DNA from: Candidatus Latescibacterota bacterium
Lineage (GTDB): Bacteria; Latescibacterota; UBA2968; GCA-2709665
DNA: 64,000 nucleotides
Direction: 5' to 3'
Assembly: GCA_965219455.1 (NCBI GenBank)
Contig: OZ244744.1
Location: forward strand, 3,072,001-3,136,000
The position numbers and the translations under genes were made by a program. This document shows, one piece after another, positions 46,788 to 51,285 of this stretch. How positions within the stretch are numbered: the first letter of the stretch is position 1; the number at the start of each line of letters is the position of its first letter. Under the pieces are notes generated by a model. The model made no database searches, was not told the origin of the DNA, and was given only the letters and a program-made list of their open reading frames with translations.

Positions 46788-48311
46788 TTGGCATCATACG
46801 ATTGGATCGACCTTGAGGCCATTGAAGGCTACGACCGTCTCATCCAAGTGCTTGACCCGGAATTCGATCCGAAGGGAATTGCAGAGAGACTCAGGTCTCA
46901 AGTCACCGATGCTGCCAAAGGCGTGCTTGTGGAGCACGGGTACGTCGACAAGGACTATCGGAGTACGTTCTATAACTTCTATGCGAAGATGGGCCGTCAG
47001 TACCGAACCGATTGCGTCCGACTGCATTTCTTTGACGGTTTCGTTCAATATAAGGAAACCCAAACTGACATCACCTGCAGCGACGGCCGTCTGCAAGACC
47101 ATTACTACGGATACATCGTGTTGAGACCAACGATCGTCGCCACTTTGGGGCGATCCGTGCTCTCTCCAGACATTCGTTTAGGCGCGCGCGGCAGAGCGAT
47201 CCAGTCCCTACACCACGTCAACCTGCTTGGTCATCGACTCCCCGTATGGGGTTTCCCGTCGATGGCTCAGCATGTTGACATCGCGGTCTGCGCTCATGTG
47301 TCGTGCTGGGCCATTCTCCGATATTACAGTGAGACATATTCGCGACATAGGGAGTATCTCGTCCACGACGTAACAAAGCTCGTCGCCCCGTTCGACCCTG
47401 GCGGATTGGTGCCGTCACTTGGCTTCAATGTCTTGGAAGCTGAACGTGTATTTCAGGCGGCTGGCTGTTTCCCGGTGCTCGTCGGCAAGCGTAATTCCTC
47501 TTCCGATGGGGCGTTTTTCTCCCAGTTGCTTGCCTATCTCGAATCGGGTTTCCCGTTGTTCGTTGCCATGCCCAGCGAGACCCACGCCGTAGTCATCGTC
47601 GGCCACAATTGGAAGCAAACCGCAATACCACGGCAGGCTTCGTCATCGCATGTCTGGACGCAAGTTGAAACACTGCTGACCGTAGACGACAACCTGCTTC
47701 CCTACGCTACCGTTCCGCTGTACTCGCCCGGAACTCAAGCCGGACAGCCGTCGTATTCCGCCGACTCGTTCGACGCGTTTATCGTTGCACTGCCTGACAA
47801 AATCTACTACCCCGCCGATGCTATAGACGCCTTGAGCCAGCGGGTCGAGGGATCCTTGGCGCGCGCGCGCGGACCAAGCCAGGAGCCGCTCGAGTTACGG
47901 CGTTATTTCATCACGACGGTCTCCAATCTTCGTGAGCACGCAAGCAACCACCGTACGAATCTCGGCGACGGCCTCGTCGGTCTATTGATGCATCTAGACA
48001 CGGCTAAATTCGTGTGGGTTGTCGAGTACTGCAGTGTCGCGCAATGGCAAGCCGGGCACGTTGCCGCAAGGGCGATCGTAGACGCTACCGCTAGTCCAAC
48101 GGACAAAGTGCCGATCTGGTTGCTACATGATGAGGAAGTGGCGCACGTCTTCGATCGGACGTCGGCAGAGATGAACCCCACGTCCATCCGCCTCAGTCGC
48201 ACTAACCTCGGACTTCTACCACGGATCGAGCTCAATCTGCGCCCGGTCCACGAATCACCGGCATCCACGAGTACGAGCGGAGGAGCCGCAGAAACTGGAG
48301 GAGACGAATGA
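46788..48311 (+). CDS. Papain/C39-like cysteine-protease-fold hypothetical protein
   Basis: 'AQHVDIAVCAHVSCW' (Gln…Cys), 'THAVVIVGH' (His), 'VDDN' (Asp); GAAGGAGA RBS before TTG. Confidence 0.6.
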   Translation: MASYDWIDLEAIEGYDRLIQVLDPEFDPKGIAERLRSQVTDAAKGVLVEHGYVDKDYRSTFYNFYAKMGRQYRTDCVRLHFFDGFVQYKETQTDITCSDGRLQDHYYGYIVLRPTIVATLGRSVLSPDIRLGARGRAIQSLHHVNLLGHRLPVWGFPSMAQHVDIAVCAHVSCWAILRYYSETYSRHREYLVHDVTKLVAPFDPGGLVPSLGFNVLEAERVFQAAGCFPVLVGKRNSSSDGAFFSQLLAYLESGFPLFVAMPSETHAVVIVGHNWKQTAIPRQASSSHVWTQVETLLTVDDNLLPYATVPLYSPGTQAGQPSYSADSFDAFIVALPDKIYYPADAIDALSQRVEGSLARARGPSQEPLELRRYFITTVSNLREHASNHRTNLGDGLVGLLMHLDTAKFVWVVEYCSVAQWQAGHVAARAIVDATASPTDKVPIWLLHDEEVAHVFDRTSAEMNPTSIRLSRTNLGLLPRIELNLRPVHESPASTSTSGGAAETGGDE

Positions 48312-48508
48312 ACCAAAAGCTCAAGGACTACTTGGGGAAATTCAGCCCGGCAACAGAGGACCAAACCATGCTCGATGACTTGCGCCAAGAGATGGAACAA
48401 GCCGTCCCGGAGATCGCTAAGAGCATCCGAGAGCGTGAGGAATTGGCTGCCGAATTACGAATTGCCGCATCAAAGCCGTCTCAGTCCGACAAGGACAAGC
48501 AGGATTAG
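48308..48508 (+). CDS. Small helical hypothetical protein coupled to the protease gene
   Basis: ATGA overlap; GGAGGAG RBS; coiled-coil-like composition. Confidence 0.65.
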   Translation: MNQKLKDYLGKFSPATEDQTMLDDLRQEMEQAVPEIAKSIREREELAAELRIAASKPSQSDKDKQD

Positions 48509-48864
48509 GGATCTGACGACGGACGCTTAAGCCTCTCGTACGCTGTAGTGATGATGGCCTCCAACGCATCGGCGCCGTGCTCATCGAGGTTCGGGTCTGC
48601 ACGGAGCAACCTCGACACCATGGCAACCGGTTCAGCGTCGTTCTTCGGTGCGGCCGTGAAATCCACGGGGTTGAGGCCCGACCACGCGCAAAGCGCCGTT
48701 AGGCTGGCGGCATCCGGTTGCCGCCCCTTCGACATCCTGGACAACGTCGACTGCGAGACACCTGTCTGCTCGCTTACCGCCTTCCAACTGATATCACGGG
48801 CCGTCACGGTAGCGCTTAGTGCCTTGTAGAAAGCTTTAAAGTCGAAGTTCAGACGCTGGGTCAT
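48505..48864 (-). CDS. XRE-family HTH transcriptional regulator
   Basis: 'ISWKAVSEQTGVSQSTLSRMSKGRQPDA'. Confidence 0.8.
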   Translation of the reverse strand: MTQRLNFDFKAFYKALSATVTARDISWKAVSEQTGVSQSTLSRMSKGRQPDAASLTALCAWSGLNPVDFTAAPKNDAEPVAMVSRLLRADPNLDEHGADALEAIITTAYERLKRPSSDP

Positions 48865-48958
48865 TATTGGCTGTTTCCCTTATGGTCGCAGGCCGGATGA
48901 TGGCACACTCTCGATTGATCCAGCCCCGAACGATTGACGGAGCCCCTTGGATACCACG

Positions 48959-50326
48959 TTATCCCTCCACTACCGGAAGTTCGAGCGCGTCACCCATGGC
49001 CAATCTGTGGACGCATTCCCTACATTCCGGATCACGACGCGGAATTACGCGTTGCGCCTTGCCGCGATGAAAATGGAAGTGCTGATAGGCTGCTTCTACT
49101 TCACCGGTTCGGAGCCCCAGGAAGTCGAATAGGAAGTCATTGACCGCATGTGCAGCAGCGACAGCGTTCAAGGTAATCACGCTAGGGTTGGCTTCCTGAA
49201 CTCCGTAGGCCTGTTCCTTGCGTTCCCTGTCCGACTTCGCCTCGATCGCCAGCTGCGTCGGATCAATCAGTCCGTTGCACCAAAGGCAGCCGGTGCCTGG
49301 CCTGATATGTCGCACCGCACACATGGCATCTTCGAGCTTGCCGCGATACCCTCGCCGTATCTTTGCACCCATTTGAATCGTAGGAATGAGATACTGGTGG
49401 GCAAGAGCATTGACGACGAGCCGGGCTCGCATGGAGTCTGCGGCCAGGAAGATGAAGTCACAATCGCGCAGAATCTGGGCGACGGACTGACGCGAAACGT
49501 CGGCGGCGACCGGATGCATCGTAGCATCAATCGCCATCTCGCGTGCGTGACGAATCGCGATCTGGGTTTTGAGTTGGCACGTTTCGACGTCAACGCGGGT
49601 CGCGCCAACCACACGAGAAAGGTTGCTGCTCTCAATCTCATCCGGATCGATGAGTACGAGGTTCCCGACCCCAAGTCGCGCAAGGTATTCCGCCACTAAT
49701 GAACCAACACCGCCGAGCCCAATGACAGCTACCTTGCTCGCTTTCAGGATCTGCTGTCCAGCCGCGCCGAACATACGTACTTGGCGATCATGCTCGCCGT
49801 TCGACCCACGCGCTCGGCGGGGTTTGGTGTAAAGCCTCGTAATCTCGTCTCCGACGATACGATAGGTCCCGAGAGATCGACGGCCGCCATCCGGCAGCCA
49901 GATATCGGCGGCGACCGAGCGTCGGCCATACACAAGTGCGCCAATCGGGACTCCGCGGCCAATGTCGAGGAGCGCGGGATAACCGCGCTCGTGGGATTCA
50001 ATATCGACGCGGCTGAAATCGACACGCCGACTGCTTCCGTGATTGTGGACAGCAAGGTAGGCTAAGCCCGAGTCCCGGCACTGGAGGATCTCGCGGTGAA
50101 TGAAGGTTGGAGACAGCGCTCGGTAGCCGTATTGGCCCGCGACGTAGTCCGTTCCAAACTCCGCCGGCTGAACATGCTGCACCAACAGGCGCATGTAAGA
50201 CCCGTTGCGCACGACGCCGGCGCGCAGGATTGCACCGTACTCGTCCCGGTCGCCGGGAAATAGGTGCTCCATGATTCGCTGGTGATTCTCGGAAGTCACC
50301 AGGATGTCGCAAGATTCCCGCGTCAT
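48959..50326 (-). CDS. JAB metallopeptidase - ThiF/E1 adenylyltransferase fusion
   Basis: JAB 'DEYGA…HNHGS…FSRVD'; E1 'GLGGVGS', 'DPDEIESSNLSR', 'CLWC…CREC'; ATGA overlap with upstream E2. Confidence 0.85.
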   Translation of the reverse strand: MTRESCDILVTSENHQRIMEHLFPGDRDEYGAILRAGVVRNGSYMRLLVQHVQPAEFGTDYVAGQYGYRALSPTFIHREILQCRDSGLAYLAVHNHGSSRRVDFSRVDIESHERGYPALLDIGRGVPIGALVYGRRSVAADIWLPDGGRRSLGTYRIVGDEITRLYTKPRRARGSNGEHDRQVRMFGAAGQQILKASKVAVIGLGGVGSLVAEYLARLGVGNLVLIDPDEIESSNLSRVVGATRVDVETCQLKTQIAIRHAREMAIDATMHPVAADVSRQSVAQILRDCDFIFLAADSMRARLVVNALAHQYLIPTIQMGAKIRRGYRGKLEDAMCAVRHIRPGTGCLWCNGLIDPTQLAIEAKSDRERKEQAYGVQEANPSVITLNAVAAAHAVNDFLFDFLGLRTGEVEAAYQHFHFHRGKAQRVIPRRDPECRECVHRLAMGDALELPVVEG

Positions 50327-50709
50327 CGGAGTTCCTCCAGGAAATGCAGTACTTTGACGAACTTGGCCACCGCCGTCTGAGGGTAGTTTTGAGTTTGATT
50401 GTTGCGCCTGGAAACCTGTAGGGCGGGTCGGTCGAAGAATTGGGCACCGGCAGTAACGGGCGGCTCGAAGGCCACGCCGTCCAAGCGACACACGTTGTCG
50501 CCGATGAACATTGGGTAAATGTCGGCGTATGGATAGAGTGGCGAGATATGGCCCCCTAGCCATGTGGACGAAGGATTATATCGTTCCCCAATGTTGACGG
50601 GTTCGACGACAACGTATGCGCCCCCGCTCCCGTCCTCCCGACTGCTTACATCCGAAGTCGGAAACGCCCGCTTCAGTTCCTCGATCGCGCTAGCGGCATC
50701 CTGCTTCAC
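50323..50709 (-). CDS. Prokaryotic E2/UBC-like protein
   Basis: 'YPYADIYPMF' UBC-like strand motif; 'QVSRRNN' active-site segment; lies between Ubl and E1. Confidence 0.65.
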   Translation of the reverse strand: MKQDAASAIEELKRAFPTSDVSSREDGSGGAYVVVEPVNIGERYNPSSTWLGGHISPLYPYADIYPMFIGDNVCRLDGVAFEPPVTAGAQFFDRPALQVSRRNNQTQNYPQTAVAKFVKVLHFLEELR

Positions 50710-50730
50710 GGTGTGTCCTAACTGATACGG

Positions 50731-51000
50731 TCAGCTGTTATCGTCCGCAGCGATGGCGGTGAAGGCTAGGTGTTCGGTCAACAGAACTTTGTCGTCGTTT
50801 CCGATCACCTTGCTCGATCCGTTCGGCAGTTGGACCTGCAGCACGAAGTTCAGCTGAATGTTGACATCCTGCTTGATGGCGGCCTCCTTAATCTCAAGTC
50901 CCGTCGCTGGTCCGGCAGGCATCGCGACCTTGTGGTCGTTGACTTCAATGGTAACGGTCTTGAGGCGAATGTCCTCTACCACAGCGTCTTTAGCTGTCAT
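50731..51000 (-). CDS. Ubiquitin-like (multi-ubiquitin-type beta-grasp) protein
   Basis: 'VTIEVND..V…TGLEIKEAA…FVL…KVIGNDDKV…FTA'; AAGGAG RBS; first gene of the E2-E1 operon. Confidence 0.7.
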   Translation of the reverse strand: MTAKDAVVEDIRLKTVTIEVNDHKVAMPAGPATGLEIKEAAIKQDVNIQLNFVLQVQLPNGSSKVIGNDDKVLLTEHLAFTAIAADDNS

Positions 51001-51040
51001 TTCTCTCTCCTTATGAAGATGGGTGTATGTTTGTAATAGA

Positions 51041-51085
51041 AATATAATCATTGCTCATTTGAAAGTCAATTGCTTTTTAGCAATT
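51041..51085 (-). promoter_or_regulatory. Sigma70 promoter of the Ubl operon with palindromic operator
   Basis: Minus strand TTGACT-17bp-TATATT; perfect AATTGCT-N4-AGCAATT at 51068-51085 overlapping the -35. Confidence 0.65.
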
Positions 51086-51285
51086 TTTTCCGGTGATGAA
51101 AATCAGCCATGTAGATGTTCACTTACCATACCACGGCCTTGAGGGTTTGCAGCGCCCAACCTGACGGATCAACCCTACGTGTCAATTAAGTATTAGACGA
51201 CTTCCCGTGAGAGTTTGTTGTCGAATATTGGGCGTACTCCCATTTAGCCAGAATCCCGATCTCGGCCATCAGCGCGCGACCGCAC

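Follow-up and report, generated by a model that had tools for sequence, protein, structure and literature searches.

A C-terminal Gly, or at most Ala, is treated as a near-universal requirement of the modifiers that E1 enzymes activate: ubiquitin, ThiS, MoaD, SAMP, BilA and BubA all carry Gly or Gly-Gly at the C-terminus, natively or once exposed. In the available text of the Bub preprints (Ye, Gong, Chambers, Corbett, bioRxiv 10.1101/2024.11.21.623953, and one more), which describe the closest known systems, only a conserved Gly is mentioned and Bub is defined by BubE. The accessible part of Iyer 2006 records that some new families of ubiquitin-like proteins (Ubls) lack a conserved C-terminal Gly. 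Here we describe a Ubl gene and its neighbours on a 64,000-nt stretch of a Candidatus Latescibacterota genome (contig OZ244744.1, positions 3,072,001 to 3,136,000; hereafter the window). The 89-residue Ubl ends in Asp-Asp-Asn-Ser (DDNS) and has no Gly after G67, unlike the modifiers listed above. This tail is a real, conserved feature of a clade and neither a mutation nor a sequencing error. Sequence comparison suggests, as the best explanation, that the protein is the modifier of a Bub-like ubiquitination-type cassette related to the '6e' operons of Iyer 2006. We put at roughly 60% the probability that this cassette is Bub-like without BubE and that its modifier is activated at a C-terminal Ser in place of Gly. 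No description of a DDNS tail was found in the literature searched, a scope outside which lie Burroughs 2011 and the supplementary tables of the Bub preprints.

The Ubl gene starts with ATG at 51000-50998, downstream of the Shine-Dalgarno sequence AAGGAG, and stops with TGA at 50733-50731. Its product ends in ...LAFTAIAADDNS, and its final Gly is G67, within VIGNDD; beyond K70 the protein lacks Lys and Arg. Translation of the open reading frame (ORF) thus bears out the first-pass annotation, which had reported a protein ending in FTAIAADDNS with its last Gly in VIGNDD and none at the C-terminus. Residues 16-84 match positions 1-67 of the 69 in the Multi_ubiq profile PF14452 (E 9e-7), and the score of 29.4 bits exceeds the gathering cut-off of 24.5, which makes the protein a member of this family. 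A sequence search of the Protein Data Bank (PDB) with the Ubl returned zero matches at E up to 10. Contigs from two independent studies, one run of which may be the source sample, cover 49892-50830 and show neither a difference nor an indel; the read error in the tail for which the first-pass annotation had allowed did not appear. One RNA library yielded a contig of 190 letters over 50820-51009, which is no demonstration of transcription. Many contigs from the same metagenome runs are only 90-95% like window positions 48900-51100, so those samples hold several cassette variants side by side.

Homologues share the DDNS end. We classified the best 120 of 351 close homologues, mostly 80-93% identical to the window Ubl, and the best 150 of 323 more distant matches (34-60% identity), which were retrieved from 1.84 billion representatives at 50% identity and scored with the pattern [DE][DE]x[SAG]. 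All but two of the 120 close homologues end in DDNS (one ends in DDNR and one is truncated), and 112 are exactly 89 residues long. The motif stands at the very C-terminus of 117 of the 150 distant representatives, as DDNS in 99, DDHS in 5, DDKS in 4 and other variants in 9, with a final Ser in 113, Ala in 3 and Gly in 1. Seven of the 150 carry 2-6 extra residues after the motif and six a long region; the 20 that lack it are mostly short or out-of-frame-looking products, which were not inspected singly. The alignment of homologues that the first-pass annotation had proposed therefore finds DDNS-stop conserved, and homologues ending in Gly, which it would have taken to mark this copy as a mutant, did not appear beyond the one among the 117. 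Together with the identical contigs from two studies, these tails led us to reject a mutant copy or a sequencing error as the source of the missing Gly.

Conservation within the protein is concentrated at its end. We aligned the window Ubl with 65 sequences hand-picked from the 150 (alignment A2; 37-60% identical, n=66). The columns invariant beyond the initiator Met are G34, K38, F80, D86 and S89, with conservation of at least 90% at D87 and N88. Positions 84-85 vary freely (AP, AD, AG, PN, PD, DG and others). Some members have H, K, D, S or T in place of N88, and the last residue stays small. The Ubl also ends in DDNS in all five plasmid systems examined from cultured hosts, which belong to Rhizobium, Mesorhizobium, Mycolicibacterium, Rhodococcus and Nostoc.

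The motif also marks a boundary. In six fusions of the Ubl to the E2-like protein encoded next to it (E2L), namely P0268, P0377, P0386, P0279, P0322 and P0393, it lies precisely at the junction, the junctions reading DDNS/DDSN, DDNS/FDNC, DDNS/DTTH, DDEAS/FPPL, DDDS/REIK and DDNS/DGDV. In tandem proteins with two or three Ubl domains, it is present on the last domain only. Both placements fit a processed, activated end. A search for longer proteins with the E2L profile found three, of which P0393 is a true fusion and two look like frame-fused artefacts. Separately, P0061, P0392 and P0394 join Ubl-E2L parts, or E2L and the JAB-E1 fusion enzyme of the cassette, through out-of-frame-looking stretches, and are probably frameshifted assemblies and not genuine fusions.

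Ubls of Gly-type Bub systems, taken from plasmids that carry DUF6527, provide a register for the tail. In hhalign, A2 aligns with the Bradyrhizobium Bub Ubl at a probability of 95.7% (E 1e-8) and without gaps to D86. The Mesorhizobium Bub Ubl ends in FSAVPKANFG-stop, so that the length after its F-x-A-[IV] strand equals that in FTAIAADDNS, and the Bradyrhizobium Bub Ubl ends in FFAVPPATFG plus four residues. This collinearity suggests that S89 occupies the position of the activated Gly in the nearest characterised family, in a register that is not universal, since the Gly-type tails of Sinorhizobium and Planctomycetes are one residue longer.

JAB-E1 and E2L look fully active and Bub-like. The best solved relative of JAB-E1 is Citrobacter BubCD (9ea4, E 5.8e-29), which matches over residues 8-400 and both domains; the Pfam ThiF match of JAB-E1 has E 1.2e-39, and weaker PDB matches of the E1 domain include MccB (E 8e-10) and PaaA (E 1.5e-8). 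Across 53-55 homologues that are 52-95% identical, the JAMM residues E29, H94, H96, S105 and D108 are invariant. So are, in the E1 domain, G203, G205, G206 and G208 of the P-loop, R238, D297, Cys347, Cys350, Cys435, Cys438 and the crossover-loop residue Tyr374, which aligns with the Tyr region of BubCD. NCBIfam returned nothing for the cassette proteins beyond sub-threshold ThiF/MoeB models. PADLOC returned generic Cap2 'E1-E2' models on the ThiF domain only, and none on the Ubl, E2L or two further cassette proteins, p507 and p66.

E2L was modelled with AlphaFold2 (AF2) at a predicted local distance difference test score (pLDDT) of 93.5 when a deeper alignment that includes fused forms (A6) was supplied, and at 35 with a shallow one (A1; 20 sequences, 75-91% identical). 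The top Foldseek match of the model is Citrobacter BubB (9eae_C; TM 0.72, root-mean-square deviation 3.0 over 117 columns, 15% identity), followed by classical E2s of the ubiquitin-conjugating (UBC) fold. In E2L, S100 never varies across 51-66 sequences, conservation of D63 is at least 90%, and no Cys is conserved; S100 and D63 appear to parallel S333 and the Asp of BubB. Prok-E2_E (PF14462) is carried by 26 of the 30 Atlas clusters nearest to E2L. Four of four E2Ls from metagenome loci, 49-55% identical to that of the window, score below threshold for this family (15-22 bits with a cut-off of 25; E 2e-4 to 0.02), so E2L is a distant relative of Prok-E2_E and not a member by the curated test.

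To place the tail, we modelled two copies of the E1 domain (165-455) with Ubl residues 12-89, ATP and Mg. The complex gave an ipSAE of 0.85 versus 0.01 for the best of three controls, and 116 of 157 solved complexes and 2 of 215 mismatched pairs attain the mark applied to this score. At least 83% of the contacts are common to the runs, and the pLDDT of the Ubl is 91 or higher. In the model, Ubl residues 81 and 83-89 contact E1 residues 203 and 205-208 (P-loop), 295-297 and 299 (Asp297 motif), 319-326 and 351-358. Because similar complexes have been solved (BubCD-BubA, ThiF-ThiS, MoeB-MoaD), this result speaks for likeness to known complexes, which may reflect memory, and not for binding. R300, K322, R324, R339, K364, R430 and S382 are conserved in 20 E1s of the DDNS type and differ in four of the Gly type, a hint that the E1 has adapted to the acidic tail.

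If Ser is the activated residue, S89 would be the mature C-terminus and the window gene already 'pre-cut'; in relatives that are fused or carry a short extension, the JAB domain would cut after Ser. The E1 domain would bind the beta-grasp fold and thread Ubl residues 83-89 into the adenylation site, where the Ser89 alpha-carboxylate would be adenylated, with the basic residues R300, K322, R324, R339, K364 and R430 reading the Asp-Asp pair. As in Bub, the acyl group would then pass through oxyesters, on Tyr374 and next on Ser100 of E2L, to a target. We infer each of these chemical steps, the target and the biological role from what we observed: conservation of the tail and of catalytic residues, collinearity, folds and gene neighbourhood.

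Several points weigh against the activation of Ser89. In the available text of Jenson 2023 (PMC10097602), on the one bacterial E1-type system where such an exchange was tried, Gly-to-Ser at the C-terminus of a Cap2 substrate abolished thioester formation and conjugation. The His at position +2 from the catalytic Ser of BubB is Arg in E2L. The window E2L has no Pfam match at E up to 10, hhalign of E2L with the Bradyrhizobium Bub E2 is not significant (probability 3.9%), and a PDB search with the E2L profile gave no sequence match beyond one at chance level. In the E1, a CxxC (Cys347/Cys350) lies near the start of the crossover loop; we read it as half of a Zn site completed by Cys435 and Cys438, and a catalytic Cys is possible there. 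The comparison of 20 E1s with four draws on few sequences, which are related to one another. Although the Ubl needs no processing, the JAMM residues do not vary, so the JAB domain must have some other job, and it may trim the Ubl tail further. Finally, the metagenome loci were scanned with a 13-sequence alignment biased to the pattern AIAPDDNS and, fished in this way, do not count toward tail conservation.

The Ubl could instead be an adaptor or regulator that is not conjugated through its C-terminus, with the acidic tail serving as a binding or metal site or as a plug for the E1 or JAB domain. We regard this as unlikely. It would agree with the failure of Cap2 to accept a C-terminal Ser (Jenson 2023, PMC10097602), with the judgement of Iyer 2006 that the E2-like domain of 6e operons is inactive, and with the Ca2+ sites that Bub Ubl3 proteins use for assembly (Gong 2024), each as given in the accessible part of the source. 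Yet no variation is seen at the adenylation residues, at the crossover Tyr or at the E2L Ser, the same Cys-less enzymes conjugate in Bub according to the available preprint text, and a motif found on the last tandem domain alone and at the fusion junction fits an end that is processed and activated.

Somewhat less likely still is further trimming by JAB, which would remove Ser or the whole DDNS so that the E1 activates the exposed Asn, Asp or Ala. The first-pass annotation had proposed activation at the terminal Ser or, alternatively, at Ala, Asp or Asn after JAB cleavage. Conservation, the fusion junctions, collinearity and the complex model favour the first of these, and the second is disfavoured, as the best-conserved stretch of a protein would not be its propeptide, whereas the residues to be exposed at 84-85 vary freely. 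N88 can also be replaced, the final position keeps to small residues (113 Ser, 3 Ala, 1 Gly), and Ser is collinear with a Gly that is the very last residue of a Bub Ubl. In favour of trimming, the JAMM residues are invariant though the gene product already ends at the motif, and the E1-like enzyme MccB, which the E1 domain matches at E 8e-10, acts on a C-terminal Asn. The JAB domain of BubCD processes its Ubl, as the available text of Ye 2024 describes.

There is a slim chance that activation at Ser89 goes with something more unusual: the beta-hydroxyl of adenylated Ser89 might be used chemically, for example by way of an O/N acyl shift or a short-lived beta-lactone, or the DDNS end might direct conjugation to a non-lysine or non-protein acceptor. 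Either, if true, would be ubiquitin-like chemistry of a kind not seen before.

It is rather improbable that the E1 carries out a peptide modification of the MccB/PaaA type on the DDNS end, such as cyclisation or nucleotide attachment, and not protein conjugation. MccB and PaaA act on the non-Gly C-terminus of short peptides, where an Asn or Glu is essential, both are among the PDB matches of the E1 domain, and the tail is rich in Asp and Asn. However, BubCD is by far the better match and covers both domains, the cassette includes a partner with an E2 fold, the substrate is a folded beta-grasp domain (pLDDT 91 in the complex), and Asn88 is penultimate and not invariant.

The Ubl and E2L ORFs share a frame and are one TGA and seven sense codons apart (DDNS-stop-PYQLGHTV), and the spacer contains a Gly codon, so a read-through fusion would account for the lack of a terminal Gly; a C after TGA makes for a leaky stop. 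Across nine genome loci, the spacer measures 9, 10, 13 or 21 nt, three of the nine are out of frame, the stop is TGA or TAG, and one locus (L002) has two further in-frame stops. Each of the 89 loci has a stop (TAA, TAG or TGA) right after DDNS, followed by a purine-rich spacer of about 6-27 nt with a Shine-Dalgarno sequence and by a start codon; Ubl and E2L have a gene each in the window and in every one of the 89 loci, and fused forms occur only in more distant relatives. We therefore reject as highly improbable both a single protein made by TGA read-through and resembling the fused BubAB, with the true cleavage at the Gly five codons on (PYQLG), and a stop produced by mutation or error: the loci differ in spacer length, frame and stop codon, the spacer Gly codon GGA belongs to the Shine-Dalgarno sequence, and the contigs of two studies match the window with no indel.

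Among the proteins encoded beside the Ubl, E2L and JAB-E1 genes (Table 1), neither p66 nor p507 has a match in Pfam or NCBIfam. In 35 p507 sequences, Q161, C168, H266 and D300/D301/N302 are invariant, the pattern includes C168-x-H170, and the motifs Y-x-D-K-D-Y-R-S-T and N-L-R-P mark the N- and C-terminal parts. One distant p507 cluster in the Atlas has Peptidase_C39_2 in 11% of its members. The invariant pattern resembles that of a papain-fold Cys peptidase, and p507 may be a deconjugase in place of BubE, or an effector. The C-terminal Gly-Gly of p507 was considered as an alternative E1 substrate and rejected, as it occurs in close relatives only and is not conserved.

Table 1. Positions in the window of the Ubl gene, its tail and the other parts of the cassette
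Feature	Position	Strand	Description
Ubl gene	50731..51000	minus	89 aa, single Multi_ubiq beta-grasp domain; from ORF and translation, Pfam PF14452
D86-D87-N88-S89 codons	50734..50745	minus	C-terminal motif, conserved; activation proposed at S89
Spacer between Ubl and E2L genes	50710..50730	minus	21 nt; bears the Shine-Dalgarno sequence (AGGA) of E2L; in frame by coincidence
E2L (E2-like protein)	50323..50709	minus	128 aa, GTG start, BubB-like UBC fold; from AF2 and Foldseek
JAB/JAMM peptidase domain	49832..50326	minus	About residues 1-165 of the 455-aa JAB-E1; ATG overlaps the E2L stop (ATGA)
E1 (ThiF-type) adenylation domain	48959..49831	minus	About residues 166-455 and stop of JAB-E1
HTH (helix-turn-helix, XRE-type) regulator	48505..48864	minus	119 aa; Pfam HTH_26 and HTH_3; cassette member
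p66	48308..48508	plus	66 aa; convergent with the HTH gene; start overlaps the p507 stop
p507	46788..48311	plus	507 aa; papain-like Cys-peptidase signature, by motif only

Genes for the Ubl, E2L, JAB-E1, the HTH regulator and p507 occur together in 9 of 9 genome loci and in all metagenome loci that reach far enough; p66 was found in all nine genome loci, but only weakly in some of the metagenome loci. Among the more distant of the latter (L012-L089; for example L024, 5540-9993), p507, p66 where present, and the HTH gene lie upstream of Ubl-E2L-JAB-E1 and divergent from it, unlike in the window, where the three lie downstream. The genome loci (L001-L009) come from metagenome-assembled genomes of Gemmatimonadota, Latescibacterota, Acidiferrales, Chloroflexi, Tepidiformaceae and Spirochaetia. 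Across these lineages the six-gene cassette has 71-95% protein identity, and flanking genes are common to L001 and L002 only, which looks like recent horizontal transfer.

The cassette flanks are a defence-island setting: in ten long loci, they hold genes for DNA methylases, AbiEii, integrases, HipA, PIN and OLD-like ATPases. Since the cassette stands among defence and mobile genes, its role is probably in defence or stress response. An AbiEii-type nucleotidyltransferase gene lies downstream of JAB-E1 in three of the ten, directly after it in L027 (10019-11407) and L081 (10011-11399) and one ORF further on in L034 (10869-11816). No Pfam match to DUF6527/BubE was found in the six cassette proteins or in any of the 43 flanking ORFs of the ten long loci. 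The sole DUF6527 match in the genome (G000:C1:2080515-2080694, locus L096) is a stand-alone ORF of ~180 aa. No E1, E2 or Multi_ubiq was found within the 3 kb fetched around it, and methyltransferase-like and ATPase-like ORFs adjoin it. Lying ~1 Mb from the cassette and unlinked to it, this gene was rejected as the missing BubE.

The DDNS-type systems on plasmids of cultured hosts, which are more distant, have other neighbours. An ImmA/IrrE-HTH pair is found in two of the five, and no annotated p507 homologue was recognised in these five. In the Rhizobium plasmid system, such a pair, of the CapP/CapH kind, replaces the HTH regulator, p66 and p507 (L090, 2811-3718); in the Mycolicibacterium plasmid system, an ImmA/IrrE gene is followed by an unnamed ORF (L098, 2309-2836).

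The DDNS family is large, with 323 matches among 50%-identity representatives, and extends over at least seven named phyla or lineages, plasmids and defence islands. If its Ser is adenylated and transferred, E1 enzymes follow a broader substrate rule, there is a second, independent test bed for the oxyester (Tyr/Ser) route put forward for Bub, and candidate specificity residues are at hand in the E1. Any screen that recognises bacterial Ubls by a terminal Gly will overlook this clade. Cultured, tractable hosts, namely Rhodococcus aetherivorans, Nostoc linckia, Rhizobium, Mesorhizobium and Mycolicibacterium chubuense, make the question testable.

With MccB and PaaA the cassette shares the ThiF-fold adenylation domain; these enzymes work without an E2 or JAB partner, unlike the window E1, and are much weaker matches than BubCD. 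Type II CBASS resembles it in that an E1-type enzyme, Cap2, activates the C-terminus of a bacterial protein, with the JAB protein Cap3 as partner, and that this end is not always Gly (PMC10097602). Unlike what we propose for the window, Cap2 uses thioesters, accepts Gly or Ala only and acts on a CD-NTase and not on a beta-grasp Ubl, again going by the available text of that study.

Type I Bub (6E.1; Citrobacter BubAB, BubCD and BubE) shares several features with the cassette. Both have a JAB-E1 fusion with intact JAMM and adenylation sites and an invariant crossover-loop Tyr, a Multi_ubiq-type beta-grasp modifier of one to three domains, and a small UBC-fold E2 with an invariant Ser and without a conserved Cys; fused Ubl-E2 forms among relatives and mobile or defence neighbourhoods are likewise common to the two. 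Unlike Type I Bub, the window modifier ends in Asp-Asp-Asn-Ser and not in Gly, Ubl and E2 have a gene each in the window and in the 89 loci whereas BubAB is a fusion, the His at +2 in the E2 is Arg, the E1 has additional conserved basic residues along the predicted path of the tail, and p507, p66 and the HTH regulator are extra partners. The absence of DUF6527/BubE from the cassette sets it apart from both types of Bub.

The Gly-type Bub operons of rhizobial plasmids (Bradyrhizobium guangxiense p53363; Mesorhizobium sp. 131-2-5) differ from the window in a Ubl that ends in FG or FG plus four residues, an E2 annotated as E2/UBC, and the presence of DUF6527 and a phosphotransferase gene. In the Bradyrhizobium and Mesorhizobium loci (L091, 6295-7899, and L092, 5220-6704), Ubl and E2 are separate and the 'phosphotransferase' gene lies between E1 and DUF6527, a layout that differs from the fused Type I layout in the available text of the Bub preprint. 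These rhizobial operons share with the window the gene order Ubl, E2, JAB-E1, and their Ubls are collinear with the window Ubl up to the last residue.

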